Shown: positions 1-32,645 of the stretch, piece after piece | Numbering within the stretch: the first letter of the stretch is position 1 | Layout: each line of letters starts with the position of its first letter | Assembly (NCBI GenBank): GCA_043732705.1 | Contig: JAYTHE010000011.1 | Coordinates: 71,605 to 135,604, forward strand | DNA: 64,000 nucleotides | Direction: 5' to 3' | Origin: Candidatus Omnitrophota bacterium | GTDB lineage: Bacteria; Omnitrophota; Omnitrophia; Omnitrophales; Aquincolibacteriaceae | The notes under the pieces: model-generated | Databases searched by the model: none | What the model saw: the letters and a program-made list of their open reading frames with translations, nothing else | Told to the model about the DNA's origin: nothing | Made by a program: the position numbers and the translations under genes

Positions 1-3000
1 AACGAGCAAATTCAACCAATCCTGCTGTTCCATGACCGAACCCATTTGAGACTTTTGCAGCATTCCATAGATCACGACCAAATTTAATGCCGCCCCAGGC
101 CGACGAGACCAAATATCAAGCAAGGCACGCTGAAGCGGTTGATCGGGAATGCTTAGCCACAAATCAAAAAATCCTGCGACAAGAGCTTCGTCTGAGCTGC
201 CGCCATGTTGAAGTTTTCCAAATAACGGTGTCGGCGGAAAATCATTATTTCGAGTCAATTCTTGCCCTTGAACCATTCCCCGCAACAGCTTTCGGCGGAT
301 TTCTTCAGGCAAAGCCAAATAAGCCGGACGACTGATCAGGGAGTAAATTTGAACAATATAGTTTGCCCAATGGTGGTCGGCATCGCGCTGAACAAAAGCG
401 ACCTGAGTTGCCGCGTCAGGTAAAAATTGCGGCTCGGATAGAATTTTAAATTCTGCCGCAATGCGGCGAATTTCATCTTCAGTAAAAATGAGTTCCCGCG
501 GGTGCCGTGCCGTGGCACCGCGGCTCCTATCGATATGAAATAGTCTTAAACCTCGAAAGAAATAAACCACAGCAACAACACTTCCAAAATCAAGCGGAAT
601 AAGTGCGAAGCAACGCGCATACAATTCAGCAAAAAAACTACGCTCTAAATAGGTCAGCTTGTTGAAATATTCATTTTGTAAAATCTGATTTAACATCCAA
701 AATGCGCCAGAATAAGGTGAAAGCTCACGCATAATCGCAGTGAGACGCATGTTTGAGATGGAATAATGCGGTTGAATTTTTGGCTCTTCGATTGCATGCG
801 ACTTGTGAAACAGCCTGTACCACCCCATTAAAAATGGAACTGCCAACCAGCGGAATGCCGTAAAAATTGCTTCTCCAAATCCCCGCGCTTCCGAGCGTTT
901 AGTGCCATTTCCCAACCACAGCGAGCCTGAATCTCCTGTGCGTGGCTCCGGTTGAACCGAAGAATCTGGCTGACGGGTGGCGCGCGCGTAAAATTGCTCT
1001 AATAGCTTATTCACAGCTGCGTGCAATTGCATGCGCTCCGTGGTTTTTCGGCGGCCTTTTCCAACGGGTTGTCCTTGAGTTTTTAAATGGAGGTCTGCAA
1101 AAATTCGATGTAATGCTTCAGCTTGCTCCGCAGACTTCACAGAAATAAGAATTTTCTGAATTTCATTGAAGAAAGCTCGTTCGGCGTTCAATTTCTTCAT
1201 AAATTCTCGCTCTGTTTTCAACGAAAGTGTCATTCCATCAAAATAGTATTCCCAAAACAACTCCTGTTGCTGCGCATTCCAAATTTGAAAGACCGAAGTT
1301 TGAAAGACCGCCCTTATATGCCCCAACTCAATCTTTGTGGCATCAAAAATGACGCGAATCCATTGAGGATGACTTAAATCCATGTCCCTTGCCAAAACTT
1401 GAACACGACGAATATAGGGCTTCGCCAAATCAAAAGGCACATCCCTCAAATTGGTATAAAGCCATACCCACAGCCACGCAGGAAAATCAGAAAATGAAAC
1501 CTGAGGGCGCATCACACGAATAAAATCAAGCACGCTATTACGCTGACTCAGATCCCACTTAGAGTAAATAAAATGGCGCGATAATTTCCAAGCTGCGTGT
1601 AAAGATTGAATGCTCCACGATGCATCGATAAATAATTGACGCCAACGCGCATCGTATGCGGCTTTTTCTTCCGGCGACACCTTCTGATAACCTTCACTTA
1701 AATCGGGCTGCCAACGCTTAAAAACCTTCCAAACTGTCTTTTGATAAAGCTGCGAAACCCATAACGGCAAACGCATTTCCGAACGCTGTAATTCAACAAC
1801 AGCCGCGACTGGACCACCTGAGAACCACAAACTACCTTTATCTCCATCCTGATTTTCAGTTGATGCCTCAGGTGGCATAGACATACGTTGATGACGTTCC
1901 AACAGTTGTTGGAGAAGTGGTAAAACTTGTTCAGTCGCTTGCCGCAACGTAATGTCCCGCAAGGTCGTTCGTTCTTGCTCAGTAAGCCTATGACCATTGA
2001 ATTGCATTAAACGGGATGCGATGAATGCAACAAAAGAAAAACGATGCCCCTTGGAGGTGCGGTAAAATTCCCTAAGTCGACTCATAAACAATTCCAATTC
2101 CTTGTCATTGCGAATTAATTTCAACCGCAAAACTTGCGCTAAAAATTCAAGCCCATAATAATCATCTCCACCAAAAAAGTGCCTTAGGCTACGCAATAAA
2201 GGATCTTGGAACCACTTTGCGAGAGGCAGAAGGCGTGGATGATTAGCAATATTAAGCAGTAAATATTCACCATCAAACCCGGCAATTCCATATTCAGAAG
2301 TACGCATGACTTTGCGTAATTTTCCAGCTTGATCAATCCAGTAAAGCGGATGGTCTGGAATTCCCATGGATGGTTTCAAAGTTTCATCCGGTCCAACCAT
2401 AAAGACCGCGCTTGCGTCGACCGTCCAGATCTTCCGTTCTCCGGAGAAATTCTTTCGAATCAATAGTTTATGTCCGGTTTTTAAACTTTCCACATACCAG
2501 TTACCGGGATTGCCGGGGCCGCTTTCCGCATTTTCGTTATAAGTCACGTAATCATTACCGACAAACTTTGGAAATGACGGATCTTTGCCGAAGGCAACGA
2601 TTCTCGTCCGTGTTTTACGGTCCCAAATTTCAGCCGGTTTTTTATCCGGATAATTAAATTTCCATAGCAGTACCTTGGTTTGGTCGGGCGAAACTTCAGC
2701 ATGTTCAAAACCATAGTATGTTTCTAATTGCCGGCCAGTACTTTGTTCAAAAATAGTAACCCGGCTGCCTTTCAAATCACTCAAAGCCAAAAAACCATTT
2801 TGTGAGAAAGTACAATGCCGAAAGTTCGTTCCATACTTTGTGACAGGCTCAAGCGTCGCGGAATCGATCAAAATTCCCACAAAGGTTTGAGGATACTGTT
2901 CACCGCCGTCATGATGGTAGTAATCCGCTTGGAAATAGCGTAGTTTTCCGTCAGGTGAATAGTCCGCGTCGTGACTAGGCCCTTGCACATGGTTGTATTT

Positions 3001-3300: not shown

Positions 3301-6300
3301 TACAGCTTGTGAAGCTGCGCCGAGAATCCCCGCCAAAGCGGCGCGCTGAAACTTTGAAAAATTGCCTGAGCCTTTACGATTGTAAAAAACGCTGCGAATA
3401 ATTTCCTGCAATAATGTTTTAAGTGCAGCAGGCAGCTTCGAGACTTCGTCATCATGCAGATAAATCGACCATTCATGCCCGTAAACATCGGGCACAATGG
3501 CAGTATCATCGCCCAAACCAATACCGAGAAAATCTGTTTTGGTGCGTCCGATCAGACCATTATTTTTCCGAATTCGTTCGAGAATTGTTTGGATCGATTT
3601 AATATCACCAACACCATCGGTCAAAACCATCACAAAATGACGGTCACCGCCTGCTTTTTCAATATCGCGGATCGCGGCTTCAAGCGCCGGGCCTTCATCG
3701 TTCCCGCCATAGGCTCCAATACTATTATGTAAATCATCCACCACCGCGTCCCGGTCTTTTTTCGTCGAATACCCGTCGGGAATGGCTTCGTGTCCGGGAC
3801 GCTCATATTCCTTGCGTTTATCATCGGGAATTTTTTGGCCTTTGAAACGTTTATGCAAATGCGTTCCCGTGCCATAACCGCGAATCGCAAAATCAATGCC
3901 GAGTGCCTCAAGCACTTCCGCAATTAATGTCACGCCGATCAAAGTTTTATAACCTTTGTCCGTCGCCTTCTGTTCGGCTTTTTGCCCTGGTTCACCCATG
4001 CCCGCCATCGAACCGCTTTCATCCACGATAATCGTAAATTTGATATTTTTTTTCTGTGGAATGATCCGATGTTCAAAAACATTCAGGCCATTTGAAAAAC
4101 CATGCGCAATGGCTTGAATCAAATCCTGGACATTGAGCCGGCCTTTTTTCTTATGTCTTTCCCATTTCGGGCGCGTGGAATTCAAAATCAAATCCCGCAA
4201 ATAGCCGGTCAATTCATTAATCATGCGGCTAATTAAAGGCCAGGCCATCAACCGGTCGCGCTCACTCATCGGCCGCGCGCCTTCATGATCCCGTTTGGCC
4301 TGCTGAAAATCTTTGGCGTCTTTCGCTGTGCGGTCCACAGCTTTACCTTCGTCTTCATACTCTTTTTTCATTTCATCTAAAATTTGCCGGCGCACATGAT
4401 CCGGCAATGTCCGATATTCCCGCGCCCACTCTTTCCATCCTTTTGTCTGCCCCGATTGAGGGGGCTGGTTACCCTCGCCTTTGCCGGAACGCGGCATGGT
4501 GGCAGACGCATCACCCTCTTCGCTCTCGCCTTTCTCGTCACCTTCACCCGGCTCACCTTTTTGGCCTTTTTTCCCTGACTGAGATTGACCTGATTTTTGA
4601 CCGCGCTGTCCTTTACCGCCCTGACCTTGTCCTGGCCTCCCTTGACCCTGCATTCCTTTTTGGACCGACTTCACAAACCATTTATAAACACGGGGTAATA
4701 TAATTTCACGGATTAAAACTCCTTGCTGCAAAGATAATTCCTGCAAAGACTGCTCGGAGGGATAGCGGTCAAATTCCCAAACACCGCGGTCATTCTTTCG
4801 CACCGGTACAAGCGAAAAAACACCACGCATCGGCGATATACGCCTGCGTAATTGACTCTTTTCTTCGGCTGTTAAATGTTTTTGCTCTTCATAGTCGTTT
4901 AAAACACCAACCATGTCCTGTTCCGTACCGCCGCCAAAAATGCCGCCGTCGACAAGCTCTTGAGCGTCAGCCGCCAGCTCTGGATCGCGCTCACCTAATT
5001 TTTTGATAAAGTTCGGGATCATTTGCATCGCGTCGGCATCCCAACCGCGCTTCGCCATGAAAAGAAAAAAGTTAAGCAGCGCGTTGACATCATCAATCGG
5101 TTCACCCGGCTTACCAAAAACCATTTTCTGAATCAACTCTTCGGGATTTTTTTCTTTAAAAATAACTTCATCATTCGTAGCCTTCAGCGGCGTGGCGGCC
5201 CCTTGAAAAAGCATGCGCGCCCAGTTTTCAATACGCCCGTCTTCAAGAATGTTGAATACATGCGCGGCCACGCCGAAGGGATCAAAAAATTCCGCAAATT
5301 GATATAAATAGCGTGTGCCGTAGCGATGCATGGCTTCATGAATACCTACGCCGATGAGCGCATTCAAGCTGAGCACATTGATCATTTTTTCATCATAAAA
5401 AAGCGTGCGCGTTGACGGCTGCCAGGCCCAGCCTTCTTCGCTCGCTTTCAACGTAATATCCATGCCTTTTGTGACAGCCGAAAAAGTATCTTCGTAAATT
5501 TGCTTTTTCTTTTCTACCGGCATTTTTTCCCATTCACCTTTGGACGGCAAATTCTCAGGCAACCCACCTTCGCCAAAAGCTGCAATGGGTTTGGCCATCT
5601 TGAGTATTCCTCCCGGCTGCCCAACGGATGAACTTGACTGACTGGACATCGCTAAAAAAGGCGAGCCGCCATGAGGAATGTCTTCACCGCTCATCCCCGC
5701 AATTTGACGCCGCGTTCCGCCTAATGCCTCTGCGACATCCAAATCCGTGCTGGATTCTTCCGGTAACCCGCGTTCAATCATCGCTTGAACAAAAGATTGA
5801 ATCCCGCCAAGCATCATGCGGTATTGCTCGCCTTTACTACGTTGACTGCGCACCCATACTTCGCGAAAACGGCTGCGCAACGCCGGTGAAAGCGGCACAC
5901 GACCGGAATTCATTCCGGTCCGCCCCTCGAGAGGATTCATAGTGCCGGCAAGTCTAAAATTCGGATGAATATTGACCTGCACTTTTTGTCCCTGAATAGT
6001 CAGCGTACCGCGGTCAAAATATTCATTTAAGATTTCAATCACGGCGCTGTCCGCCATGTTCAACTCTTCTAAAACGCATAATGAGCCGCTTTCCATGGCG
6101 CGGATTAAATCACCCTTTTTAAACTGAAAAGTACCTGTCGTTTCATCAATCACAAAATAGCCAATCAACGACTCAACCGTTGCGGCTCCGAGCGCAACCG
6201 AAACATAAGCCCAGCCCAGTTCACGGGCAATATCCGCAAGCATTTCTGTTTTTCCGCCGCCGGATTGCCCAATCAGCGCCAGCGGCTGAGATTGATGCAC

Positions 6301-27300: not shown

Positions 27301-30300
27301 AGCGTCGCGCAACATGGCCAAGGCTTCGGTTTTGTCGACACGGCGCAAAGCAGTATCCAATAAATGCGGCGCCGTATCAGGACTTTCAAATCTGAATCTT
27401 TCACAAAGAATCGCAAACTCTTCTAGGTCAGACGGCGGTATTTTGCGAATGGATTCCAAATAAAAATCATAACTTTTAAGGTCAGAAATCAGCTTTGACC
27501 GTGTCAGCTCATTCAAAAGGCTTAATACAAAAACCGTGTTCCGCCCAAAATCATTCCCCAATGTCCGAATCACCTGCGGCAACCTTTCTAAATCGAATAT
27601 TTTCGGAGAAAGACGACTACTCGCGATACCGCCATATTCAGCAAGAAGCTGGCCTTTGTTTTTGCGTAAAATTTGCGACTGATCTTTCTCTAATGGCGAC
27701 ATCCTCACCGGTCCGAGCGGAAATATTGTCGTATGATTACCTGAATCTAAAATTGTAAAGTCGCCATGTCTATCTTGACGCCATGCCATCCACTTTGTTC
27801 CGGGAAAAAAGAATGCGCTGTGACCTTTTTCAAGAGTTGTGTGTTTAAGACTCCATGTCCGCGTGTCATAAACCATATCGTTTTCGCCAACCCCATGAAA
27901 AATAACCGATGACAAATCGGGTGAGAGTTGAGAGCCGGATGCAACCACGTTAAAGCTTGTGTAGGCAAGCGCACTAAGTGAAAACACCTGATATTTCCAT
28001 TTGCGCCCGCTCGTATCGGCCATTGTCATGACCAATAATTGATTGTTGGGCAAAGCATTAATACTCGCCCCGCCCGGGAAAATATGTAAATTTGTACCAT
28101 CCACGGAATACAAATCTATATCGTTGTAACCTGGCCCAGGTCTTCGAATTAAAAACCAATGGCCTGCAGGATCTGCCAATTCAATATGACCGGGATGAGC
28201 GGAGTGATCCCAAACCATTTCCCCTGAAACAGTTTCAAAAACTTTATTCCCATACTGATACCATCGACCGTCATTGAGAAACCAAGGACGCTCAGCTTGG
28301 GGAAGACTCCGCAATTCTCGCTGGGTTTTCAAATCAAACAAATGATATTGTTCACCCGTCAAAATAAAAACATGCTTTAATGAGAAAATAAAATGATCGA
28401 ATTGCTCGGTGCTGCCAAAAGCATTAATTTCATGCCCCTCTAAATTAGCCAAATAACATCGCCCGTCTTCAATTTCCCCCTTTACTAAGACTATATGTCT
28501 TCCATCCTTGGTGAATTGGATTCCATTGCCTCCAAAATCACGAGCGCTTTCACCGCCCTCCTCATGATTTGTCTTGAGGTCAATGATTTTAAATTTTTCT
28601 TTTCCTGCATAGTCGCTCTCAAGATCAAAGCCCACGATTAAATGCGTACTCAAGATACCGCCTTCAGATCCGTCAATTTGATTAAAATGAGGCGGCAACA
28701 TATTTTTACCCTCGTCTGAGCGCCAGCGGCGAACCGGCATCACGCCCTCCAAATCAACTAAAACAACTTCCTGCTTATTCCAAAGAACGAGCCAACGACC
28801 ATCCGGTGAAAACTTTCCCTCGTCTGCTTCTGCTAAATAGTTTTCAACTGAACCAAAAGTTTGAAGCCAATTTTGGGTAGCCGAATATTCTTCCGGTGAA
28901 GTTTGGCGCTGTTCACTACGAGCACTTTTAATTTTTACATTCTCATCAGACACCGTTTGTCTGAATTCCGAGCGTGCTGGCTCAAGAACGGCGGAGTGCT
29001 CCGTCGCTAACCAAAGATTGCGCGGATGATCATCGCCGGCTGCGCGGGATTGAGTTGCGGCAGGCTTGCGAGAAAGGCGCGCACCCCAATCACGCAACTG
29101 TGAATTAATATGCTCCAAGCTAGGTAACTTGAGCATAGCTATCAATACCGCCCGGGCTGCCCGCGGCAATTCGCCAAGAGAATAGTACGGGGAAAGCAAA
29201 TTTTGAATCATTAATATGGTTTCAAGCGGCAATGCCTTCAACCATTTTTTGTACTCGTCAAAAGACTGCTCGTCGTGAATCACACGAAATTCAAAAAGGA
29301 TACTCAATAGATCAAGTTTGAGCTCCCAGGCCTCACCCCATTCATGCTTTATTTTGGGAAGCATGTCGCGCAGAGACTGCGAATAATAATAGGAAGGACT
29401 GGCAGACAATTTCCCTTTATCAAACCTACGCGACATAAAATAAGTGAGCCAACCATTAAAAGGATCAACAGTAACCAATTGCCAAGAGCCAGGCAGTAAA
29501 AAATCAGAACCCGTTCCATTTTTCACGTCAACGACATGAGTTGTTGTGCTTTGACTACGATCCGGCTTGTCATTAAGGTAAATAAATTGATGATTAACGG
29601 CGAAAGCATTTCGATCCGCAAAATGCTCATTCCAGCTCCCTTCCAGAGTTCCGAGATAGATTCGCTGAGGCCGCTGACGTTCAGGGCTCCAACCATATAT
29701 TTCAAGTTGGACAAAAGGCTTGCCGGAAGGTGGCTTTTGATTTGTAAAAAAAACAAGAAACTCATCTACCCTGAACATCCCCGTAAAATCTTTCGGCGCG
29801 GGAATCACTTCCCCTGAAATAGGCTCATAAAACTGCTGGCGAACTTTTGAGCTTTTTAAAAAAATCCAGCCGGAGAAAGGCGTATGCTTCATCGTGTCAA
29901 CATCGGATAAATCCATGGTTGCCGGCGGCTGTTGTAGCGGCAAATAATGCCCGTCGCGATAACGGTAGAAAGAAGTTTGCTTTTGGGCGTGCGCTAGCCC
30001 CCTAAATGCTGCGCGTGCAGCTTCGTCTCCTTGTACATAAACAGCTTGCGCCACTCCTCCGCCGAAGAAATCAACGTCTGATACTTCATATCCTCGAGGA
30101 GGTTTGAAATCAGCATGGGGCCGGCGGGTATTTATATCCATCACCCAATTATTTCTCGCAAGCCCGCCGCCCTCATTAAAATAAACCGCTCCATCCTCCG
30201 GTGAAACACGGATCGTAAAACTATGACTTGGTGCCGTAGAAGATAATGGAATTCTTTCACCGGCCTTGATCGCATCTCCATCTTTTTTAATAATAATAAA

Positions 30301-32460
30301 GCTGTCTCGTTGGACGACATTCGAACGACCCGGATATCTCGCATCAGGGCGGTCTAAAAATATGACATTCCCTCCCGGATCAACAGATGCCACATTGATG
30401 TATTGATTCAGCAAATGCCAGCCATGTGTATCCCAAATTTCAATTGTAAAATCATTTCGAATAACAAGCGCCAGCCGTCCGGCGTTTGAAAGATAAACCC
30501 GATCAATATCTTTCATTAGCCATTCTTTTTCAACCGCTTCCGTTTTCAGATTGAAAATTAAATACTTCTGGTTACTTCGATCCAAAATGACTGCCAACTG
30601 GGAATGAGGCAAAAAACTAACGTAAATATTATCTTCACGATCGCCGTAAATAACGCGGCGTGTCGGCCAGTGGACAAGCCGATATCGGCCCGTCTTCAAA
30701 TTCTTAAACAAAACCCAGTCTCCAGAACGGATGTGAGGTTCACCCCAAAGATTAGCTAGTTTAAAATCTTGTTGAATTTTCTCAAGGTCGTGAAACCGCA
30801 TTTCTGAGCGCGACTTTGCTTTTGATTGAAGCCCAGAAACTAGCTGAGAAACAACAGGATTAAGATTGACGCGCCGGTGCGTTAGTAATGCTGCTCCGGA
30901 AAGTGCAGCGGGTATATGCGCCTGTCCTAATACTTTCGCAACATTAGAGGGAGTCAGTTGATTGTGCATTTTCAAACCTTTTAACCTCAGCACAAAATCT
31001 TCGACTTCCTTTTCTAGATGCTGCCGCTTAACGACCATATCCCTGCCCGCTTCGTTTAAAAGCGAATCATACCGTCGAAAATCTAAAATTTTATTTTGTG
31101 CCGCTAAGTCTCGAATCAGCTGGTCATGCCAATTCTTGACGGTTTCTGGCGGTGCATTGTCGAGCAAATCATCGCGCAGTGCCCGGGCAAATGATTCAAA
31201 TAACAGCAATTCTCCGCCGCTTCGCACAAAGGATTTTCTCCACGACACGTCACTTCTCATGCGTTGAGTATAAAATTTTTCAACCGGCAAAGTATGGATA
31301 CGCGGCTGAATTACCGTATAAGCGATTCCGGCCTTCCGTAATTCTCCCGTCAATCCGGCAGTATGAAATCCGCCCACGACAGCGATTTGATTTCGTCCCG
31401 CACGCCCGGCAATGTTTTTTAAAATAGTCTTTTCACGACGCTGAGCATTTTTGTAAAACGAGACATAGACATTCACGGCTTCCGGAAGCTCTCTTTTTTG
31501 AATGGCATTCCAATCTTGGCGTGATAATTCCAGCGAAATTAATTTTCTCATCATCCGCGCGCGGTCAATCTTCTCATTCAATTGTGCAACATCCGGTAAT
31601 TTCAGCCACGGCGATTTTGTGCGTAATCGTGCTGACTCCATTTCCAACGATAAATTTTCAGCATTTTGATCAAGCCAGGCTTCGAAGGCCGGGTAGCGCC
31701 GGTTAAACTTCATTTTGCCCGCTGCGAGCAATAGTTTTTCAAGCCGGCTGCCGCGAGTGATTGCCTTTTGCTTTTCAAGCGTCTGCAACAGCAAGCCAAT
31801 GTGCGCGGGCTCACTCGCAAAAAGCGCTTCGGCCTGCGTCAATTCCCATAAAGCCGGCGGGTCGATTTTTTTTGCCTCGCAATAAAGTGCTTTTATTTTT
31901 TTATCAAGCAGCGGCAAAAGAATTTTCTTCTGTTCTGAGGCTTGATAAAAAAGATTTAACCCCTTTTCATAATCACTCCACTTTTCAAGCCCTGAAAATT
32001 CTGCCGTACCCGTCTCCGTAGCCAAGGCAGCTCCGGCCGCACCCGACAACTCACCGCGCGCATAAAATTGACGCAAAGCCCGGATTAGGTTTTTCCGGTC
32101 AGGGAAAGACTGAAAAAGTTGCGTGTCCAATATACCTTCCGCCCCTTCAACCCCAATCTGCTTTACACCGTAGCGGCGATTTAAAAAACGAACAAGTTGG
32201 TGAATATTATTCTGGGCATCCGGAATATCATGCGCATCTTGAATGAGTATCACGCGCAGCTTAGAGTTCTTTAAAAAATTTTCTGTAATCCTTCCAAATT
32301 GCTTGGGAATAATCAAACGCGTTAAATCCTGGTACGCAATTGGGTTGGACACAGGCGTGGCATAAACAGGCTGAACGATTTGTGTCGTCAGAAGGCACAC
32401 CACAAGAATCGCTACGCACCCTGTATTAAACAGTATTTTATGAAGGATTTTTTGCTTCAT
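1..32460 (-). CDS. Giant membrane-anchored midasin-like protein, >=10,820 aa, 3' end beyond window start. Order N to C: signal/TM anchor; ten beta-propeller/helical super-repeats; six tandem AAA+ (AAA_5/MoxR-type) domains; zincin-like HExxH linker; low-complexity tether; VWA/MIDAS domain; further propeller/helical module.
   Basis: ATG at 32458-32460 on the minus strand. An in-frame TGA lies 33 codons upstream (32557-32559) with no alternative start between. The N-terminus MKQKILHKILFNTGCVAILVVCLLTTQIVQPVYA is hydrophobic. I scanned the minus frame (plus-strand triplets starting at positions =1 mod 3, looking for tta/cta/tca) through 1-11040 and 15001-15600 and found no stop. The ORF track lists no ORF in this frame anywhere in 1-32460; the other minus frame and all plus frames carry only short ORFs. 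Hand-translated motifs agree (see domain features). Confidence 0.8.
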   Translation of the reverse strand, partial: MKQKILHKILFNTGCVAILVVCLLTTQIVQPVYATPVSNPIAYQDLTRLIIPKQFGRITENFLKNSKLRVILIQDAHDIPDAQNNIHQLVRFLNRRYGVKQIGVEGAEGILDTQLFQSFPDRKNLIRALRQFYARGELSGAAGAALATETGTAEFSGLEKWSDYEKGLNLFYQASEQKKILLPLLDKKIKALYCEAKKIDPPALWELTQAEALFASEPAHIGLLLQTLEKQKAITRGSRLEKLLLAAGKMKFNRRYPAFEAWLDQNAENLSLEMESARLRTKSPWLKLPDVAQLNEKIDRARMMRKLISLELSRQDWNAIQKRELPEAVNVYVSFYKNAQRREKTILKNIAGRAGRNQIAVVGGFHTAGLTGELRKAGIAYTVIQPRIHTLPVEKFYTQRMRSDVSWRKSFVRSGGELLLFESFARALRDDLLDNAPPETVKNWHDQLIRDLAAQNKILDFRRYDSLLNEAGRDMVVKRQHLEKEVEDFVLRLKGLKMHNQLTPSNVAKVLGQAHIPAALSGAALLTHRRVNLNPVVSQLVSGLQSKAKSRSEMRFHDLEKIQQDFKLANLWGEPHIRSGDWVLFKNLKTGRYRLVHWPTRRVIYGDREDNIYVSFLPHSQLAVILDRSNQKYLIFNLKTEAVEKEWLMKDIDRVYLSNAGRLALVIRNDFTIEIWDTHGWHLLNQYINVASVDPGGNVIFLDRPDARYPGRSNVVQRDSFIIIKKDGDAIKAGERIPLSSTAPSHSFTIRVSPEDGAVYFNEGGGLARNNWVMDINTRRPHADFKPPRGYEVSDVDFFGGGVAQAVYVQGDEAARAAFRGLAHAQKQTSFYRYRDGHYLPLQQPPATMDLSDVDTMKHTPFSGWIFLKSSKVRQQFYEPISGEVIPAPKDFTGMFRVDEFLVFFTNQKPPSGKPFVQLEIYGWSPERQRPQRIYLGTLEGSWNEHFADRNAFAVNHQFIYLNDKPDRSQSTTTHVVDVKNGTGSDFLLPGSWQLVTVDPFNGWLTYFMSRRFDKGKLSASPSYYYSQSLRDMLPKIKHEWGEAWELKLDLLSILFEFRVIHDEQSFDEYKKWLKALPLETILMIQNLLSPYYSLGELPRAARAVLIAMLKLPSLEHINSQLRDWGARLSRKPAATQSRAAGDDHPRNLWLATEHSAVLEPARSEFRQTVSDENVKIKSARSEQRQTSPEEYSATQNWLQTFGSVENYLAEADEGKFSPDGRWLVLWNKQEVVLVDLEGVMPVRRWRSDEGKNMLPPHFNQIDGSEGGILSTHLIVGFDLESDYAGKEKFKIIDLKTNHEEGGESARDFGGNGIQFTKDGRHIVLVKGEIEDGRCYLANLEGHEINAFGSTEQFDHFIFSLKHVFILTGEQYHLFDLKTQRELRSLPQAERPWFLNDGRWYQYGNKVFETVSGEMVWDHSAHPGHIELADPAGHWFLIRRPGPGYNDIDLYSVDGTNLHIFPGGASINALPNNQLLVMTMADTSGRKWKYQVFSLSALAYTSFNVVASGSQLSPDLSSVIFHGVGENDMVYDTRTWSLKHTTLEKGHSAFFFPGTKWMAWRQDRHGDFTILDSGNHTTIFPLGPVRMSPLEKDQSQILRKNKGQLLAEYGGIASSRLSPKIFDLERLPQVIRTLGNDFGRNTVFVLSLLNELTRSKLISDLKSYDFYLESIRKIPPSDLEEFAILCERFRFESPDTAPHLLDTALRRVDKTEALAMLRDAHARFKRMPAVPESRGGRDPRTDDHIWFAKKNPRRSELRSLNAENFEQFKTALLRWDNHDKAGSEIKKTRGFYTENGRWFVYGDGDVIKQVDLTNRVKDRIFKGAIRDHSKTKLVFSRDGQYGIFDFETGSENLIPESVVERKSEHDDDLFRLSSDRKYFITNSEKLLKLFDFDTGHQILEKISIKEIHFTHAEGDQYALVLDDKKQWHWVHVPTGRILHSFDINPRLDVNDIDPKLTPNLSGNGKWIIYAGKIYETKHFTFKSAPRGDDYQVLQGDFLIRQHSTRTNAGRQVRLSATDLTDGKKYSLLTTPSAINVQFGNYRLWFRAGEGKTFSTVFDLNKKEVKTFPQEMSFAEYDEEYFMATYSDGRSFIYDNTDLKPVAQLEDGPYDTEQGFSINDGIALVEKDGNRRLLDAKTGKVIYYLGYRPHSFSMHPTNGDFMVSLPLHDPDFRGKIRGNEKLWNWKNRNSEIDYLQSRFHDIAPYVMHILSWLMIGGVIQTSADYDAALKLLQDLNPSTYNILGLCIERLVRYFELSGGGKSFSFLNTLKQFKDSSPYALQILLLLLNSKVIRGEQDDELVLSLLQRVQPDQFLILLSKLTDLLKHPQFAAEKHRDVILHFLNAENPAQMAKLLRQRWERKPGEASAPDSGASPTTPDSIWLTSSDQRSEMRYADFKKTFLTHDFNLPRLWGVPYGSGGDWLVFHRSQRQNRLVHWPTRRVIYGENENHIELRPQANRALILEYEKRYIAFDLKTEKIVKEWPLSDVKHIDLSWDGRLACVIHKDLRMEVLDTQDWHQLNEYKNVTSVRFIQNGIFLERPGSGKDDNPDEPGMVRNIEPDSIVVIEKAGDRLKAGEKIPVPVNATQMSVRISPDGKVVFISPIPKAYHRRSGYLPSWIMDYESRRPHPDFIAPHPKWSPLTVDFFEGQLARVTYVNPQDGKDQETILYRYRNGHYLPLEQPAHTAALSDIDKIKSTPFPGWVFLQSKTSRQSFYEPNTGKVIETPSGFIFQDAGNFSIFYKNYHSALAPFAEVKVFSWDAASREPRIIYQDNLKGGDYGRGGDKFFDARGPNLCILESGPNLHVIHAEKKSHEVIALPDGFHVRSFLAMDDWPLIYLVNPVGSPNSDPQYEAMLLYSKQMHQDDSQLKQELGGEAWLSKLFLLALFDELGLIYDESTFALYFQAFGHIKSNAAFKDIWDAFIQRSNAINFKSLEVRASIENFLRNPGEGKLGTILEHLAARATRLRGENSRPKNPGDVATDQELWLTEHALAEQRSELRQISAAQFEALKPVLHEYLALEKYTSNPQGAEFSKDGKWMLVSNQIQGANPQSTWLVNLATGKAVKHWLSGKLHIHFTDLNQVLITDSDSPQSIGKTPLLYDLSTGVETNLLKLTGERSLVSLRQANSARYLYAVGRKKLYIFDLQKTELIFSYQVPSGDHPLDATHLDDGRFIVQWSQRFDLISSKGTLIRNFSSDNAGIGTVRVSNLTHRLVTGKKIYDLDTFKPLSMPDHISNFIDSSGQWLSLYLSRSIILFDLKTGKKSVDFKRFEGFVDVKFDPSGRMAYFYKWPFRSQPSGESAYGEWHQWDLHRQDWTGRRLLSYDDSSIRISPKGKWLLASLGISRDKRREQLAFIDPLSFKVISRFNLPRVPGQVYFIAEFSRDEKYAYVKPKAGFNHFLVECETGKVVLKVPEVGIFQSNNVFEQRELYAPQYLANHHPSRLIPFGNDDALQNLKKDFGLAYPYVLNLLARAYQWGWIASADEMNRLLKLWSGAGRAQIELASVAMEQVLRSQRFRRNQDLPSIQHALNNAQCGKLMEALRDRFQRQVAAPHIPDLAKPSDPTGNSPALWLAGTEHGQGGVVVRSEMRPIRVSKKDVAGMKTELERFHWPAKERFRAAQLIEGGKYLLASKHERGNGDGFELVFRVEGERLIPLDYFPRDKQFYSVGNGMVFYNNLTFGSYEPAEGLLDLATGAVVDTFPFPTSTIFHRFHSEFPLIILHDEKAEQHVLRNYQTHENIVVQPDVDIYAAIEFLGKERVVVRESASRRDRIKGMMFERIARSGLEFILQEESHLNLAANDLAALYGSTGLVMTYPMNNQFRSENDFHFRAYDMRTGESVKEFEDKLVLVSDRLGQVHTRDDNGHHMLWEWPSKKIIREWDDKWGSHEKFLNDPDEYFNLIQTGMDASHYLGELSGHKNSNHVRMLAFSSDGKTYAERKGMDTFELHETSTRRLIRRIPGRTTFYFSRQGEYLYVRIYDMRNITQGGQQMIMDAVTGKILQPYRQIDLTHPPSAPGDTMLVNLMGHHFAKWLPIKITDMLSRKIFNRWKFDGIFILNILAWLNQLHLLETKADWQFYLNHLQQIPCEDLKGISIALEAILFQHEEADAKNMVASILRSGSPDSFLTQMQLYLSRIERKRSGKEIDLGLPKPGTNELWLTGVLGGGSAAVVLVKRRSESRKISTKDYEAFKKALQDWSSPEKLLPGAQESYFSKDGRWWILSNSSWTLVMDLTGAVQARRVPGKMVRATNEKLLLLSGRAFRNYDLVSGAEQAIHTGIAEVAWVSPGEKYFYFKSSGAKRGLIEFKTGKPPVFLPGPVEAVLFPAGRKEDDLALVLDVENHLFWMNLSTGEKLHGFGKQPEVIDKSGVSDDGQWILLNNDVYETKHFTSRALPRHFKAYNYIFFLGSFLVLRTDGEQDPKGEQHLSVLDLRSGEEFPLMTDISITIQQDPQNRWLWFQGSKNHAPSAEQFKSVFDLRSRTIRQLSEPVSRPEYSETGERFAALTPDGRATVFDNVTLAPIAKLKSKRGNSNFEFSPDGAVVTTSDAEDEENSRYLFDSQTGEIIFYLGIPYDGDQAKDFHARWGEYAGRLITWVDEDDYHYQFKLWNWKNLNPEISKIQRRLKDDAPYVMHLLASLFDAGVIRDSADYSLVTQLLKKIPAKILPLAALGIEKIIRNSKFNLEKGRTVIFDILKRHDDAAALAMATLERMSREQGEAGRAEKLMPPDASKGDAGLWLQGVAEASKRSEVRTAGDWKTRTFLDLVREIKTFTLIEDRKNKEIQGRKNEFDWRTRPELDFSFSDFSRDGSKFCAAIGAWMEIWDLKTLQLLRRLKRVQAGSMADFTSNAFVYNLHFSTNEKYLIEGERNGIKRIFALNPADGFVLETQWFSQVVFSPDGRFCLTVGEDWKQATLYHLDSKEAPRTFNLRGIEQAAFSSDSRYFSLLAGEEVEVREPVHGTLIQHYAQIQNFRFSPRGTYRIIKRPRSRGPATESVYPIKGTESLAWIDRDTEHVDFSSDEAFALLKKKNIVELRNAQTGVLIEAFQYPQQPSFDPVAGRLFIKNVNAERFSVRDLKTGVILADNLEFPIERQGVNFQSSRGRMFRDSTDGDYQLLDDDQKLMLAHSLRNLKIAGDESVALIRRTWQSPRHEANTSDFVVDLKPGSLFRHFEKNAVNAMQILGVLINAHYILTQQDLNWFIQSLDELNTDPSAMEALAQFMEHLEGLAPWSKVPRETFVRLWEHPRNFKARFQDWEKRDARQPADDDKKKTGKDLPGGDPLWLEDEKKPARSEMRASGDWRLRSFYEMVKEVLIFRLSQRQINFDDSWIDKGWLYSLGKRSDPNSAVFSPDDKKLFMPIQDSSSAEIWDLEHRKRLHEFGQGSGSKNGAWQIGNEFGGSFSPDGKYFTLTGLTDIGKQVVALDKNDEFVDPNEAFSSVVFSPDKNYCLVIELDGTQRANLYDLRLKKLLRRFNMTGVLDASFSPDSRSLILHSGGLFELYDVRSARSLQQYMQIQSFRFSPKGTYRIVQRSVGGLKHSTEFVYPLRGVSQALAFAGNDSLRVQFSPDEKLVLLEKIDHFEMRDVASGVELEKWEKSFVPSFDPMGGRLWIENKQTKKFSVRNLGDGHVIADDLDYPLKQAGTKFQISESKVPADGTSDTKYRLLNIDGTDWGLPLAGLKIAPQETRALMRQVLPPASPRDSPTTLDHVVDLRPDSLFSHFGANALSAMLILSALVDSRYIVTQEDFKWFVDSLDGLQNHPDKMRELAAFLLEFNNTANWEEIPREEFLQLWENPGEFQNKLKAWRFRNQRVTGKSVRPADSSPDGNPLWLMGEGAAPVNSLKKKIARSEIREIKKEIRNFITQFRAEAEQSGMAGFIRDLPEWMTHHWDEAEKNMHTRLASIEAEARQRIDHPDEWMRQLRAYLVLSTLPESLISHYENSDELDPLKVNERINYVHAAIFSGTTDRLSESVPEKLKVFTARLQSLFQWKTFYGRSGKVADFELDHFVVNYLLAKKPQLTEVLEHVIARQDWPEIFEDWYQQARKDMGEVEDLKVMREISQLYRLHYSGRDYVAVTPGNEASKKDPELRPYDANIIGAVFSLGLKSLLYKLNAREEIEGDELEMQALVKKDMRHLRQMMTITFNTARINPEDNLGPLLDFGEVKRICQNGLGVLKENYFPMASELDLLEALAAISNTSRENLRVVTGKLLGRDTETGDKYLRIIGQSVDRFKQIGLILGYVGQEAFDQIPFGALRDKYGLSENQQEYDRMLEVIAKISRSAGSGTAELLKELFDLYKDHAGNTLDDFNKLMQCFSYFVRVVNFHYEFEQMVTKHEIGQVNDEAYYVSLRDLKKTLKIARRYFDGKRDIREALELALRRRYVHRLNSDEDRSRVRMALVANRLIDPKEELDSIYDITGYEAGSREIIITERRREKIKQYLQRENATDTGERLPGKEVIAHSTEQSPPWELLRIQLKKPLEPGDIAQDVIFNQTTRKNLAHLLLAMDLDDEKGFNPILEFGYTAGGKSTLAALAAKITGSGYTRIQINERTDEFDLFGSFQPYEMQISLKEAVERLEEALDRGEWNDLEEALSRMLTGNEGQFWSAFFTEEERAGIIGTATGDEMRQKQQAAIRSRLIQRIQNRIERGKMLTQLGAVKFDENQKKEADEIRTLAYLMNHEIGLRYMEGRFITAYKKGDLILLDEVNLANEEMLGVLYQLLTMGWLQYHGKIIEPETSRRPRVIATANPSSYAGRKRMSEAFMNRFEILWVKEMNGQEMFEILYGTMQKDLIRLRGYTPEHFMRAQGESEIEFQKRIDSYLQQEFGVTQRELIALADTQRGLNQYLLGGRFNMGADSNYMFTIRDYLRIYRDILERKQVGQELNLESWIRESFMLFSGVLLRSDVYLLNSDAIKNDLSYERLRNIFCVQMGDLFRGQFSTAQDAFDNLIERNFKTIEMRHNDQSKTVSIDGIETHGKARTVRRWTEPLVFVESTKYAMTQVVKGFRQNQPVLVVGQSGGGKSDVIADAAYKLGWDYVSVSLGDATLEDLLGSMEYDKKEKRFVYRPGVLIKAMNQGSALVLEEINMAKPGILEILNEYFDEGTFTNPFTLQKVKVSPDFRLFATMNPVDGVTGQNSGRVHLSPALRSRFREVWIPAEKSASEMDEILQKLFEQYDLKFDSAVSLKIQAFFKEYREVFRHRGEPAYYTSLRDLRRVVKAMGYWNARGMKMDAALARAMHRVYELRMQNAADGETVRGVLKKANIKQFEVKVPRYHLDAGRLQFFDDQQLVAEFDFGVQSSKLENELRHEMEAAMQGMPRQQIDSAVQVKLNNTLSDSRLVENRRTLENLMTLAESTALENSDVQNGKFNPVLLIGETAGGKSSLVRFFALNLLRQGYTRIQFSERTDAYDLFGSYEPREMNISTDQAVRVIQNSMEGGQWVKLKRAMDLIQYGQSAISDDQTLSAEWDDIWSAEIAAMREKITEWLRTADSSDPQIKEDAIRKIKSLALLTHNGVLNVELDFREGRLLNAMKHGHVTMLDEMNIANEEVLAVLYQLLTLGFIETYNKDSGQVEKIYPAAGFKLIATGNPTTYEGRNQLSEALMNRFEMQFVKNMPAAEAAEIVETEMMRNKKVFGGTTIEHDVISKLAAFQDHLNKHLAEGDFPSARAGTTQGYMFTLRNLKKIIKNTGYLIRMRGRAPPPSARELSSMILEQAYLEYSGILGRSPIETAAFRRLFIAPEFFPNFNPSQIKISFSSGIDRISRRPTVEVGGFRLRGRHYERGGPSQDAQVVEELADSEQTDLIRLAVAKGLMDPRQAVLLIGQSGGGKTEIVADLARRLNWKYVSVSLANANMERLVGSFERDEETKKFRYVAGVLVQAMQEGSILVLEEINMMPSGLVEILNEYFDEGTFTNPLTGVKIKIHPNFRLFATMNPLQGVTGASGGRAGFSPAMRSRFSEVWVAHEKTSGEVEAIIRKKFSNRQVEVSKKTVEEIRRTYFAFAAKVEGQQIGKENDDNEGYYASLRDVVKVVDWVAQDMRRGIAEEDALRHALKRIYDRRLGNETDHALVRKDVFPQYHFENQDYAWHDEGDAYHIYRGNLFIASVSKAILQERGFVMTEEARQQMGYLLDGFYRDPEYARRFNPMMLLGETSGGKSTMIELAVHLWNQNVTASEQVGFRRIQMNPRTDEYDLLGSYQPVELNLSLQESYQVLQESLQGRNFRVLEKSLQTLGFSREQLQRLAGIPAGHQVSQQELIKKFIREYVLKGARQNNGRLRDLTRSIAALVHNGSIGIDLEFKKGLLLEAMGDRDQGVAGQVVLLDEFNLANEDAIGILYQLLTLGYIEYQGRKIFPGTGFQLLVSGNPASYSGRNRMSEAFMNRFEIMRVPEITPQEMAEILMHKYSLQETNISMELLVQLATMQKDIHDRSRHNYFEQFNIDDTYRFALRNLERIVKDAKVRAQHNPIAGADGTQYADYQAALLREAWIEYAGLLGQTTIDDYPEMKARMKNSASRSPATRRAKPVASKKKKKAEAETSPESVPPAEALPDNLSKLRKLFEQYLNWNPESDDFFKTFHRLRRVSNEGVDWLELGGVWVPRLTVYDILEGTLKEIQIEMGQVALTYQGGQPALPKLDPEALRSYFEQEMEAARLGGDERSPKAILYDKVQAWAKQEFGTYPDLMKAVLKLIHERLYTQADRIEKLVELQSTQIERIQIMKLFRDGGLVERRNEKGEVVWVHQSQPLALIGQSGGGKTEMLADIARELGWAYVSVALGAATVESLIGYFVIDETTGTFQFKKGDLIRAMESGSLCVLEELNMADSAVIEILNEYFDRGTLTIQGQKVQVNIHPNFRLAGTMNPLEGRTGMNSGRVPLSPALRSRFREVWVRSQRSKGEQYRMMLGGIQSFVQAMIERGLPEESSTDLDVAEALGGTRRQIAGMSGEDIPHGGSPFLAMSSQSSSSVGQPGGILKMAKPIAAFGEGGLPENLPSKGEWEKMPVEKKKQIYEDTFSAVTKGMDITLKASEEGWAWQPSTRTLFYDEKMINVLSLNALIGVGIHEAMHRYGTRYLYQFAEFFDPFGVAAHVFNILEDGRIENWARMLFQGAATPLKATNDEVIFKEKNPEELIQKMVFGKPGEPIDDVNALLNFFLFMAKRGWDADAMQMIPNFIKKLGERDPELAADAQELVDGGIFGGGTEQDMVGVLNDYEEQKHLTAEEKSQLRRRISPMRGVFSLVPVRKNDRGVWEFDRYPSEQSLQELSLQQGVLIREIILPRVYKWFVKSVQKGMQGQGRPGQGQGGKGQRGQKSGQSQSGKKGQKGEPGEGDEKGESEEGDASATMPRSGKGEGNQPPQSGQTKGWKEWAREYRTLPDHVRRQILDEMKKEYEDEGKAVDRTAKDAKDFQQAKRDHEGARPMSERDRLMAWPLISRMINELTGYLRDLILNSTRPKWERHKKKGRLNVQDLIQAIAHGFSNGLNVFEHRIIPQKKNIKFTIIVDESGSMAGMGEPGQKAEQKATDKGYKTLIGVTLIAEVLEALGIDFAIRGYGTGTHLHKRFKGQKIPDDKRKEYERPGHEAIPDGYSTKKDRDAVVDDLHNSIGAYGGNDEGPALEAAIRDIEKAGGDRHFVMVLTDGVGDIKSIQTILERIRKNNGLIGRTKTDFLGIGLGDDTAIVPDVYGHEWSIYLHDDEVSKLPAALKTLLQEIIRSVFYNRKGSGNFSKFQRAALAGILGAASQAVNSRSKARSEMRSTGKISLKAAQELVREWTWLDRKRSGVKRDTILFTEGGRSYFGQRRDWKQSYRYTDIKTGQRKPAELTRDQLEEIARKYFDAHGYPWRNKYNHVQGPSHDADYSPDGKLRYFQADYYHHDGGEQYPQTFVGILIDSATLEPVTKYGTNFRHCTFSQNGFLALSDLKGSRVTIFEQSTGRQLETYYGFEHAEVSPDQTKVLLWKFNYPDKKPAEIWDRKTRTRIVAFGKDPSFPKFVGNDYVTYNENAESGPGNPGNWYVESLKTGHKLLIRKNFSGERKIWTVDASAVFMVGPDETLKPSMGIPDHPLYWIDQAGKLRKVMRTSEYGIAGFDGEYLLLNIANHPRLLPLAKWFQDPLLRSLRHFFGGDDYYGLEFLAQVLRLKLIRNDKELELFMSRLREFYRTSKGHRFSFVAFIASRLMQFNGHRLTEQERTTLRDITLRQATEQVLPLLQQLLERHQRMSMPPEASTENQDGDKGSLWFSGGPVAAVVELQRSEMRLPLWVSQLYQKTVWKVFKRWQPDLSEGYQKVSPEEKAAYDARWRQLFIDASWSIQSLHAAWKLSRHFIYSKWDLSQRNSVLDFIRVMRPQVSFSDFPAWLWVWLYTNLRDVPFDLAKPYIRRVQVLARDMDLSHPQWIRVIFDATKIELGHIRAVFQTSVFQIWNAQQQELFWEYYFDGMTLSLKTEREFMKKLNAERAFFNEIQKILISVKSAEQAEALHRIFADLHLKTQGQPVGKGRRKTTERMQLHAAVNKLLEQFYARATRQPDSSVQPEPRTGDSGSLWLGNGTKRSEARGFGEAIFTAFRWLAVPFLMGWYRLFHKSHAIEEPKIQPHYSISNMRLTAIMRELSPYSGAFWMLNQILQNEYFNKLTYLERSFFAELYARCFALIPLDFGSVVAVVYFFRGLRLFHIDRSRGATARHPRELIFTEDEIRRIAAEFKILSEPQFLPDAATQVAFVQRDADHHWANYIVQIYSLISRPAYLALPEEIRRKLLRGMVQGQELTRNNDFPPTPLFGKLQHGGSSDEALVAGFFDLWLSIPDQPLQRALLDIWSRRPGAALNLVVIYGMLQKSQMGSVMEQQDWLNLLV
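3400..4060 (-). other. VWA domain with an intact MIDAS motif, at the C-terminal side of the AAA hexad.
   Basis: Verified translation KFTIIVDESGSMAGMGEPGQKAEQKAT at 3961-4062 (DxSxS = DESGS). Downstream reads ...AYGGNDEGPALEAAIRDIEKAGGDRHFVMVLTDGVGD. Confidence 0.75.
4450..4680 (-). other. Low-complexity Gly/Gln/Lys/Glu-rich tether between the linker and the MIDAS domain.
   Basis: Encodes MQGQGRPGQGQGGKGQRGQKSGQSQSGKKGQKGEPGEGDEKGESEEGDASA. It is visible on the plus strand as a run of cct/ttt/ccc/gac-rich triplets. No stop codons. Confidence 0.7.
5200..5340 (-). other. Zincin-like metallopeptidase motif (HExxH plus a downstream Glu) in the linker between AAA6 and the MIDAS domain.
   Basis: Hand translation verified: VLSLNALIGVGIHEAMHRYGT (5281-5342), then PFGVAAHVFNILEDGRIENW (5221-5280). 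This is HEAMH with a Glu 28 residues later. Confidence 0.4.
5800..6340 (-). other. AAA+ domain 6 (AAA_5-type, variant Walker B) of gene B.
   Basis: Walker A LALIGQSGGGKTEM verified at 6241-6300. LCVLEELNMADS verified at 6061-6100. FRLAGTMNPLEGRTGMNSGRVPLSPALRSRFREVWV at ~5850-5960. Confidence 0.7.
7300..8120 (-). other. AAA+ domain 5 (AAA_5/MoxR-type) of gene B.
   Basis: Walker A PMMLLGETSGGKST verified at ~8031-8076. Walker B VVLLDEFNLANEDA. FQLLVSGNPASYSGRNRMSEAFMNRFE at ~7350-7440. Confidence 0.7.
8580..9110 (-). other. AAA+ domain 4 (AAA_5-type, variant Walker B) of gene B.
   Basis: Walker A RQAVLLIGQSGGGKTEIVAD verified at 9001-9060. ILVLEEINMM verified at 8821-8868. FRLFATMNPLQGVTGASGGRAGFSPAMRSRFSEVWV at ~8620-8740. 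Confidence 0.7.
9650..10450 (-). other. AAA+ domain 3 (AAA_5/MoxR-type) of gene B.
   Basis: Walker A VLLIGETAGGKSS at ~10347-10385. Walker B VTMLDEMNIANEEV. FKLIATGNPTTYEGRNQLSEALMNRFE at ~9700-9775. Confidence 0.7.
10950..11520 (-). other. AAA+ domain 2 (AAA_5-type, variant Walker B) of gene B.
   Basis: Walker A VLVVGQSGGGKSDVIAD verified at 11401-11460. Walker B position reads ALVLEEINMAKPG (EE instead of DE), verified at 11221-11280. FRLFATMNPVDGVTGQNSGRVHLSPALRSRFREVWI at ~11045-11160. Confidence 0.7.
12150..13050 (-). other. AAA+ domain 1 (AAA_5/MoxR-type) of gene B.
   Basis: Walker A FGYTAGGKST at ~12913-12939. Walker B LILLDEVNLANEEM at ~12365-12405. Sensor/arginine region PRVIATANPSSYAGRKRMSEAFMNRFE at ~12180-12300. 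Confidence 0.7.
14900..31000 (-). repeat. Ten tandem ~1.75-kb (~590-aa) in-frame super-repeats in gene B. Each has a PD40/WD40-like beta-propeller plus a helical segment with a conserved LWL...RSEMR motif.
   Basis: Verified motif copies, approximate minus-strand positions: 30810 KSRSEMRFHD; 29040/28950 NLWLATEH...PARSEFRQT; 27210 HIWFAKKNPRRSELRSL; 25320 SIWLTSSDQRSEMRYADF; 23520/23470 ELWLTEHALAEQRSELRQI; 21760/21710 ALWLAGTEHGQGGVVVRSEMRPI; 20010/19950 ELWLTGVLGGG...RRSESRKI; 18290/18240 GLWLQGVAEASKRSEVRTAGDW; 16660/16610 PLWLEDEKKPARSEMRASGDW; 15000/14950 PLWLMGEGAAPVNSLKKKIARSEIRE. Spacing is 1630-1910 nt. Blade-like FSPDG[KR]/FSKDG[KR]W segments recur between the motifs. Confidence 0.65.
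32341..32460 (-). other. N-terminal signal peptide or signal-anchor of gene B.
   Basis: Hand translation: MKQKILHKILFNTGCVAILVVCLLTTQIVQPVYATPVSNP. A basic n-region, a ~20-residue hydrophobic core and an AxA-like site (VYA|TP). Confidence 0.5.
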
Positions 32461-32604: not shown

Positions 32605-32645
32605 ATTTTAATAATTGGAAAGCAGACTTTGGCAGGTCAAACGCC
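32605..32645 (-). promoter_or_regulatory. Candidate sigma70-like promoter for gene B.
   Basis: On the minus strand, TTGACC (plus 32635-32640) - 18 nt - AATTAT (plus 32611-32616). This would give a ~140-nt 5' UTR. A weak -10; a by-eye call only. Confidence 0.25.

Follow-up and report, generated by a model that had tools for sequence, protein, structure and literature searches.

A 64,000-nucleotide stretch of the Candidatus Omnitrophota assembly GCA_043732705.1 (contig JAYTHE010000011.1, positions 71,605 to 135,604; hereafter the window, numbered from its first letter) holds on its minus strand an open reading frame (ORF) of at least 10,820 codons, designated ORF A, that runs off the left edge. 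On the evidence of its sequence, ORF A is one uninterrupted, genuine giant protein-coding gene of an uncultured Omnitrophota-type bacterium of the Planctomycetes–Verrucomicrobia–Chlamydiae (PVC) group and belongs to a conserved family without prior description. Its product exceeds 1.2 MDa and combines, in a single chain, six MoxR/dynein-clade AAA+ modules, a zincin-like domain and a MIDAS-containing vWA domain. We interpret the protein, with a probability of roughly 0.65, as a single-chain MoxR–vWA remodeling machine.

The open frame was established by a computed six-frame scan. The minus-strand frame whose codon tops fall at positions 0 mod 3 contained no stop from base 1 to base 32556 (10,852 codons), while approximately 632 stops would be expected from the base composition of the strand, giving a probability of ~1e-283 for none. 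The first-pass annotation had found no stop over the parts of this frame scanned by hand (1–11,040 and 15,001–15,600) and had read the frame as a single ORF, 10,820 amino acids (aa) or longer, leaving the left edge; the frame and start-codon scans bear out both statements. An in-frame TGA (32557–32559, minus strand) closes the frame upstream, and ATG 32458–32460 is the first ATG, GTG or TTG after it. The same annotation had placed an in-frame stop before this ATG and a signal-anchor-like stretch after it, in agreement with the TGA and with a hydrophobic segment at the N terminus. Counted from ATG 32460, from which all aa numbers of ORF A are given, ORF A (1..32460, minus strand) has 32.5 kb of its length in view and its 3′ end beyond the left window edge. 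Both remaining minus frames over the region are broken (508 and 881 stops), rather than only one as had been stated. The GC content at codon positions 1, 2 and 3 was 0.55, 0.38 and 0.44 along ORF A and remained steady in each 3-kb slice. ORF A was missing from the ORF list supplied with the sequence, an absence first attributed to a length cap; that list includes the 9,886-aa neighbor, and the reason for the absence is that the lister leaves out any ORF extending past an end of the source. Chimeric assembly across repeats had also been raised as a risk. The closest DNA repeats within the window share 68% identity over 382 bp, with none higher, so repeat collapse or mis-joining is unlikely. Run SRR23617244, assembled independently in Logan, was 100% identical to window positions 32998–44270, a match covering the neighboring gene and the intergenic region, outside ORF A. 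Megablast of positions 20000–32460 against plasmids returned no match, and peptide scans with the last 920 aa in view matched nothing among genome, metagenome or viral contigs.

Six AAA_5 (MoxR/dynein-clade) modules in the order a1-b1-a2-b2-a3-b3 occupy aa 6475–8945 (5626..13038, minus strand), where Pfam AAA_5 matched in six stretches with an E value of 4.9e-102. Walker A motifs are located at aa 6509, 7002, 7361, 7808, 8134 and 8731. The a-modules carry an insert of ~115 aa between Walker A and Walker B and a Walker B of the form LLDExN; the b-modules are compact and have VLEExN. The P-loop lysine, the acidic pair, the sensor-1 NP and the RF arginine are kept in all six modules. Further Pfam matches were to AAA_3 and, weakly, to AAA_6, AAA_7, Dynein_heavy and DYN_lid. 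No NCBIfam family reached its cut-off in ORF A; the NCBIfam matches to GvpN, CobS and BchD were each below it, and matches to NorQ and CbbQ were likewise sub-threshold.

The ring modules are followed by a zincin-like domain (aa 8967–9274; 4639..5562, minus strand) that contains HEAMH at aa 9041–9045 and EDGRIENW at aa 9073–9080. The patterns HE(A/S)MH and (E/D)D(G/A)RIE were invariant in 15 species (H75, E76, H79, D108, R110 and E112 in domain numbering). An AlphaFold2 model built from a five-sequence alignment had a mean predicted local distance difference test score (pLDDT) of 85.3 and a predicted template modeling score (pTM) of 0.84. The top Foldseek matches of the model were the minigluzincins jannalysin and selecase, with probabilities of 0.87–0.99 but E values of ~0.2 and target-normalized TM scores of ~0.45, and a profile of the domain recovered nothing meaningful among PDB sequences and two fragments only in a word-indexed database search. 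The model thus points to a zincin-like, not a proven zincin, domain. A low-complexity spacer rich in G, Q, K and E by composition (aa 9275–9345; 4426..4638, minus strand) comes next, and orthologs have a spacer of different sequence at this place. The MIDAS/vWA domain (aa 9385–9700; 3361..4308, minus strand) displays a complete MIDAS signature, with DESGS at aa 9480–9484 and TDG at aa 9614–9616. Its Pfam VWA match was weak (E 0.0099). Of the vWA chains in the PDB, the family profile matched only the Rea1 MIDAS crystal structure (6qt8, E 5.2e-5), and single-sequence alignment to the Rea1 MIDAS gave an E value of 0.13. The element aligned with Rea1 reads GRLN..LI..IA..F....F..R.IP.KK.IKF.IIVDESGSM. 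In all orthologs examined, the vWA/MIDAS partner is fused to the ring.

The remainder of ORF A is a mosaic of conserved and variable regions. The N terminus (aa 1–35; 32356..32460, minus strand) resembles a signal peptide or signal anchor, with MKQKILHK, a hydrophobic core and VYA-TP, and reached a hydropathy peak of 2.06 in a Kyte–Doolittle scan. Equivalent signal-like N termini are present in orthologs P0006 and P0062 and in the ORF of ortholog locus L013. The conserved N-terminal domain (aa 36–470; 31051..32355, minus strand) has the motifs QDAH, EG..G and GGFH, and its predicted structure suggests the alpha/beta fold shared by TraB, ChaN, EreA and TIKI, with conserved His/Glu motifs near both domain ends. 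A lineage-specific middle scaffold of ~5,300 aa (aa 471–5799; 15064..31050, minus strand) bears the traces of ancient segmental duplications, as aa 400–1100 resemble 2250–2900, aa 1000–2400 resemble 4000–4700 and aa 4626–5250 resemble 5126–5750. These duplications were detectable in protein comparison and not in DNA comparison. Weak, sub-threshold Pfam WD40/beta-propeller signals were seen at aa ~3100–4550 and 5337–5516. The scaffold has no counterpart in the relatives, in which the middle region is ~1,000–2,800 aa long (~1,400 in L002, ~2,800 in L005). It is followed by a conserved pre-ring region (aa 5800–6474; 13039..15063, minus strand) that was 26–42% identical by tblastn in 17 loci and had no sequence match in the PDB. 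The C-terminal tail (aa 9701–10820+; 1..3360, minus strand), with a hydrophobic segment at ~aa 10617, is variable and is cut by the window edge. No relative matched it at E 1e-3 and neither Pfam, NCBIfam nor PADLOC gave a match; in relatives, tail length ranges from 620 aa to >8,800 aa.

Relatives of ORF A were found as eight partial proteins with 41–49% identity, from metagenome-assembled genomes labeled Omnitrophica, Verrucomicrobiae or Ca. Theseobacter, and as 17 ortholog loci with 35–52% identity, also given as 39–52%, nearly all titled Candidatus Omnitrophota, when one genome of each GTDB species was scanned with a profile. Several ortholog frames were open over the whole fetched 21–24 kb (L007, 7,708 codons; L013, 7,568; L019, 7,137; L022, 7,098), and an ortholog in GCA_023247055.1 spans 15,960 codons or more and continues past the end of its contig. 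The fixed parts of the family are the N-terminal domain and aa ~5800–9750, and the middle scaffold and C-terminal tail are hypervariable. In the compact member L013 (1517–24221), which retains the signal and the TraB-like domain, only ~2,800 aa separate the N terminus from module b3, compared to 8,680 aa in ORF A; the middle scaffold is therefore dispensable and expandable. Apparent frameshifts were also observed in orthologs L006 and L014. Database fragments of the family carry no annotation other than ‘AAA family ATPase’ or ‘MoxR-like ATPase’, and the gene neighbors of family members in relatives are ordinary housekeeping genes.

Among solved structures, the top match of ORF A was midasin (Rea1/MDN1), with a sequence E value of 3.3e-73 and a profile E value of 2.3e-85 over seven stretches, followed by CobS, NorQ and CbbQ. 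After the Omnitrophota relatives, the database matches were eukaryotic midasins (22–25% identity) and one 4,005-aa Thermoproteota protein. Midasin and ORF A both place six MoxR/dynein-clade AAA+ modules in one chain, followed by a spacer and a MIDAS with DxSxS, and in both the insert-bearing and compact modules alternate. The two differ in that their identity is confined to 22–25% and their modules have no one-to-one orthology. Midasin has a helical linker of ~1,700 aa and a D/E-rich region that ORF A lacks; the ~440 aa from b3 to the MIDAS in ORF A instead hold the ~300-aa HExxH domain and the 70-aa G/Q/K/E-rich spacer. Some 6,400 aa, including the signal-like N terminus and the TraB-like domain, precede the ring of ORF A, its host is a bacterium, and its MIDAS is not at the extreme C terminus as in midasin, being followed by at least 1,120 aa of variable tail. 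Dynein heavy chain likewise forms its ring from six AAA+ modules of this clade in one chain. ORF A differs from it in having P-loops in all six modules and a MIDAS, and in lacking a stalk, a microtubule-binding domain and the linker architecture.

The history of the modules was addressed by all-versus-all comparison and by a neighbor-joining tree of trimmed cores (182 columns, 60 bootstraps). The a-modules were mutual best matches (170–206 bits), as were the b-modules (176–232 bits), compared to at most 68 bits (a versus AAA2/AAA4) and 85 bits (b versus AAA3) against midasin. All a-modules formed one clade and all b-modules another in 60/60 bootstraps each, and each ORF A module paired with the same-position module of ortholog P0001 in 59–60/60. 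Neither module class of ORF A grouped with any one module of midasin (0/60); the midasin modules of fungi and plants, by contrast, paired by position in 60/60. The clades by class, together with the positional pairing with P0001, indicate that the six-module array is old within this bacterial family. As read from the tree, the ring is the outcome of a triplication of an (a,b) pair within a prokaryotic lineage, independent of midasin AAA1–6. The six modules of midasins P0023 and P0012 also split into odd (1, 3, 5) and even (2, 4, 6) similarity classes, which suggests that midasin, like the bacterial family, may have arisen when a unit of two modules was triplicated in the distant past. The even midasin modules resemble the a type in their longer Walker A-to-B spacing. 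These classes and this spacing are leads rather than tests, and may keep a deeper link to midasin possible. In the Thermoproteota protein (P0009; NCBI, Thermoproteota archaeon, 4,005 aa), six AAA_5 modules alternate between two classes (GETA.GKT and GPTASGKT), and precomputed Pfam matches include vWA and midasin lid domains. The even modules of P0009 grouped with midasin AAA3 in 33/60 bootstraps.

In the remodeling machine that we favor, the six modules would fold in cis into a pseudo-hexameric ring, and the MIDAS would use its metal ion to grip a target protein at an acidic residue. The ring, by hydrolyzing ATP, would then pull on or remodel the captured target, as in midasin and the two-component MoxR–vWA chaperones; this capture-and-remodel model is taken from PMC7159879 and PMC3495828. 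The adjacent zincin-like domain, and perhaps also the N-terminal TraB/TIKI-like domain, may cleave the target, a step that fits the MoxR–vWA–peptidase logic proposed by Zhang and Aravind. Tethering, location and target specificity would come from the ~5,300-aa scaffold together with the variable tail. Given the lifestyle of the phylum, the target probably lies in interactions with host or prey cells. The two-component chaperones (CbbQ–CbbO, NorQ–NorD, CobS–CobT, RavA–ViaA and BchI–BchD) couple the same AAA+ clade to a MIDAS-containing vWA protein. They do so as homo-hexamers of ~30-kDa subunits with a separate vWA partner, whereas ORF A links six diverged modules and the vWA domain covalently.

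Several observations weigh against the remodeling machine as proposed. The fold of the N-terminal domain comes from a model of moderate confidence only (pLDDT 69, three sequences), and the zincin fold match is weak (E ~0.2). In the b-modules, Glu replaces the Walker B Asp, and half of the ATPase sites may be regulatory or inactive. The module tree was a simple neighbor-joining tree calculated without single-domain MoxR outgroups. In orthologs L002 and L005, a single in-frame stop lies inside an AAA module, with the frame continuing unchanged: TAG at 9887–9889 in L002 (JGI 3300031576; also in two other assemblies) and TAA at ~22849–22851 in L005 (GCA_023247055.1). Gene callers consequently report two proteins at these loci, and some family members may be decaying or split. 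Stop-codon recoding in the family was considered and ruled out, the TAG and TAA being at unrelated positions and ORF A having none. The main difficulty is topology. By Kyte–Doolittle analysis, ORF A has two hydrophobic segments only, at aa 5–23 and ~10617, and none between aa 30 and ~10,600. A Sec-like signal, a TraB/ChaN-type domain that is usually extracytoplasmic and the absence of a hydrophobic segment over aa 30–~10,600 would together place the ATPase ring outside the cytoplasm, without ATP, in conflict with an ATPase role. Either the N terminus would not be a translocation signal, or the protein would act inside another cell.

The same topology is the starting point of the strongest competing explanation, in which ORF A is an exported predation or attachment protein. 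Its signal would be functional and its body secreted or displayed on the surface in the manner of the coat or adhesin role proposed for other Omnitrophota giants, and the ring would become active only once inside a host or prey cell, or would have a nucleotide-independent structural role. This explanation shares the architecture of the remodeling machine and differs from it on the site and target of action. The conservation of the signal-like N terminus in four orthologs and the lack of a transmembrane segment over aa 30–10,600 are in its favor. Members of the TraB/ChaN/TIKI/RRSP/HopBA1 fold family include extracytoplasmic proteins as well as toxin effectors that are injected, and the literature ties Omnitrophota giants to prey contact. 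However, complete ATP-binding and hydrolysis motifs in six modules are unexpected where ATP is absent. Domain scans of ORF A found no adhesin, dockerin or glycoside-hydrolase domains, no secretion-system genes lie within the window, and the genes that adjoin the family in relatives are the housekeeping genes noted above. We regard export of this kind as a tentative alternative, somewhat unlikely on present evidence.

A more far-reaching proposal concerns ancestry. In the accepted view, dynein and midasin share an ancestor with six tandem AAA+ modules, which arose from MoxR in early eukaryotic evolution (Iyer et al. 2004, restated in PMC3495828). The Omnitrophota family and P0009 could instead be prokaryotic sisters or precursors of the midasin–dynein lineage. 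In view of the conserved export signal and the lack of a membrane-spanning segment ahead of the ring, the ATPase might moreover be delivered into another cell, where it would use host or prey ATP. We consider this combination unlikely; if it were true, single-chain six-AAA+ rings coupled to a midasin-type MIDAS would not be a eukaryotic invention.

ORF A could also be a fused version of the MoxR–vWA ‘ternary’ conflict or defense systems (Kaur, Burroughs, Iyer and Aravind 2020, PMC7159879), with the tail as effector payload and the beta-propeller-rich scaffold as sensor. These systems share with ORF A the MoxR and vWA core, a hypervariable region after the vWA and associations with beta-propellers and peptidases (PMC7159879). 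Known systems carry variable effectors C-terminal to the vWA and include beta-propeller variants (PMC7159879); correspondingly, the tail of ORF A cannot be aligned between species and varies from 620 to >8,800 aa, and ORF A contains peptidase-like domains. Ternary systems differ in being multi-gene operons with single MoxR domains and third components (VMAP, iSTAND and FtsH), none of which was detected in ORF A, nor were known effector domains found. PADLOC and NCBIfam gave generic P-loop matches under threshold only, the loci of relatives are not in a mobile or defense-island context, and at least 17 species conserve it as one large gene. A fused defense system is accordingly a doubtful candidate, with a low probability in our estimate. 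A defense-system identity for the locus was set aside, as PADLOC returned generic P-loop matches only.

Midasin removes assembly factors with ubiquitin-like (UBL) domains from pre-60S particles, and its substrates (the UBL domains of Rsa4 and Ytm1) are specific to eukaryotes. It is very improbable that ORF A is a true midasin ortholog, acquired from a eukaryote by horizontal transfer and acting in ribosome assembly. Midasin is indeed the best solved-structure match for both ring and MIDAS, and eukaryotic midasins are the next-best database matches after the Omnitrophota relatives. Such an origin is difficult to reconcile with identities of 22–25%, positional orthology of modules in 0/60 bootstraps, the extra zincin, TraB-like and signal elements, the missing long linker, the eukaryote-specific substrates and the wide spread of the gene within one bacterial phylum. 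That ORF A is no functional gene at all, but a product of chimeric assembly, the remnant of a pseudogene or a frame open by chance, is scarcely credible in spite of the in-frame stops of two orthologs, given a chance probability of ~1e-283 for the open frame, uniform coding periodicity across ORF A, no high-identity repeats able to mis-join, and catalytic motifs conserved and collinear with orthologs over aa 5800–9750 and 1–470.

ORF A can be compared to the giant Omnitrophota proteins described previously (Archaeovorin-type and others; West-Roberts et al. 2023; Seymour et al. 2023; Nielsen & Lui 2026). ORFs >20 kb are common in the phylum and occur in most genomes of several classes (PMC10066038), Omnitrophota proteins of up to 85,804 aa have been reported (bioRxiv 10.1101/2023.11.21.568195), and one study counts 5,761 proteins that reach or exceed 10,000 aa, the longest being 147,155 aa (bioRxiv 10.64898/2026.06.07.730766). 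The size of ORF A is therefore ordinary for the phylum; the first-pass ranking among the largest bacterial genes known does not stand against published Omnitrophota proteins of 147,155 aa, and as a very long ORF alone it adds little. By the taxonomy of its homologs, ORF A probably comes from the same phylum as these giants. Like them it is extremely long, has few domains that can be annotated, and contains variable regions of poor conservation as well as internal duplications of ancient date. Hallmarks of Omnitrophota giants given by West-Roberts et al. 2023 are numerous transmembrane regions, a divergent SecA_DEAD helicase domain and a gene >90 kb. ORF A differs in having two hydrophobic segments only, no SecA_DEAD-like region that could be found and no secretion-system or pilZ neighbors seen. 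AAA_5 is among the 20 most frequent domains of Omnitrophota giants (bioRxiv 10.1101/2023.11.21.568195), and the words ‘midasin’, ‘dynein’ and ‘MoxR’ occur zero times in the Omnitrophota giant-protein papers. No account of a prokaryotic protein with six AAA modules plus a MIDAS turned up in the literature searches.

The neighbor of ORF A is a second giant, ORF B (34340–64000, minus strand), with a stop at 34337–34339, its N terminus beyond the right edge and a length of at least 9,887 aa. The first-pass annotation had overlooked this ORF and had not recognized what ORF A encodes. ORFs A and B together make up ~97% of the window and have no sequence similarity to each other. ORF B contains 12 hydrophobic segments in two clusters. 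Approximately eight tandem repeat copies of 112–122 aa lie at aa ~3000–3870 (window ~52400–55000, minus strand), with the core motif RNGEFFARA...ELKAYATPNML and 63–69% identity between copies in DNA. Motifs like those of superfamily 2 (SF2)/DEAD nucleoside triphosphatases (NTPases), namely GTGVGKT, VLDEAQ, GLSATLP, ERAGTGFD and IGRDRSN, are located at aa ~6600–7200 (window ~42400–44200, minus strand). Word-indexed searching returned no homologs of this NTPase region, and exhaustive HMMER searching of 1.84 billion representative proteins found only 12 relatives of the region, which matched nothing in PDB or Pfam, SecA included, even with a family profile. A SecA-like identity is not claimed for ORF B, for which neither sequence nor profile gave a link to SecA. 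A GNAT domain (PF00583; 22.1 bits versus a cut-off of 20.7) at aa ~9347–9407 (window ~35800–36100, minus strand) is flanked by HExxH motifs at aa 9080 and 9626, and ORF B is otherwise without a Pfam match over 9,000 aa. No B-like neighbor was found beside the relatives of ORF A, so the pairing of A with B looks incidental.

Between the two giants, two small minus-strand ORFs of 135 and 153 aa (33863–34270 and 33366–33827) have N-terminal hydrophobic or signal-like segments and no family match; both are identical on a 12-kb Logan contig of SRR23617244. The AT-rich spacer of ~900 bp upstream of ORF A (32461–33365) contains no convincing ORFs. It has 12 promoter-like sites compared to 4.4 in shuffles. 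A sigma-70-like match (32611..32640, minus strand; TTGACC-18-AATTAT, 9/12 positions) lies ~150 bp upstream of the ATG and is a consensus match only. A perfect 14-nt inverted repeat (32688–32701/32707–32720) and a terminator-like hairpin (33152–33130) lie in the same spacer. No Shine–Dalgarno-like sequence is visible before ATG 32460, and the window contains no marker genes, tRNA, rRNA or Rfam family.

What is new here, as far as the predicted architecture goes, is a single-chain (a,b)x3 MoxR–vWA machine embedded in a giant protein, of which family fragments are already in databases. In at least 17 species, this bacterial family represents an independent fusion of six MoxR-type modules with a MIDAS, in a two-class alternation like that of midasin, and is a natural comparison for the evolution of single-chain AAA+ rings. 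Its conserved core of ~3,300 aa is a tractable part of otherwise unannotatable giant proteins. The apparently exported ATPase is a puzzle that bears on how episymbiotic or predatory bacteria act on other cells.

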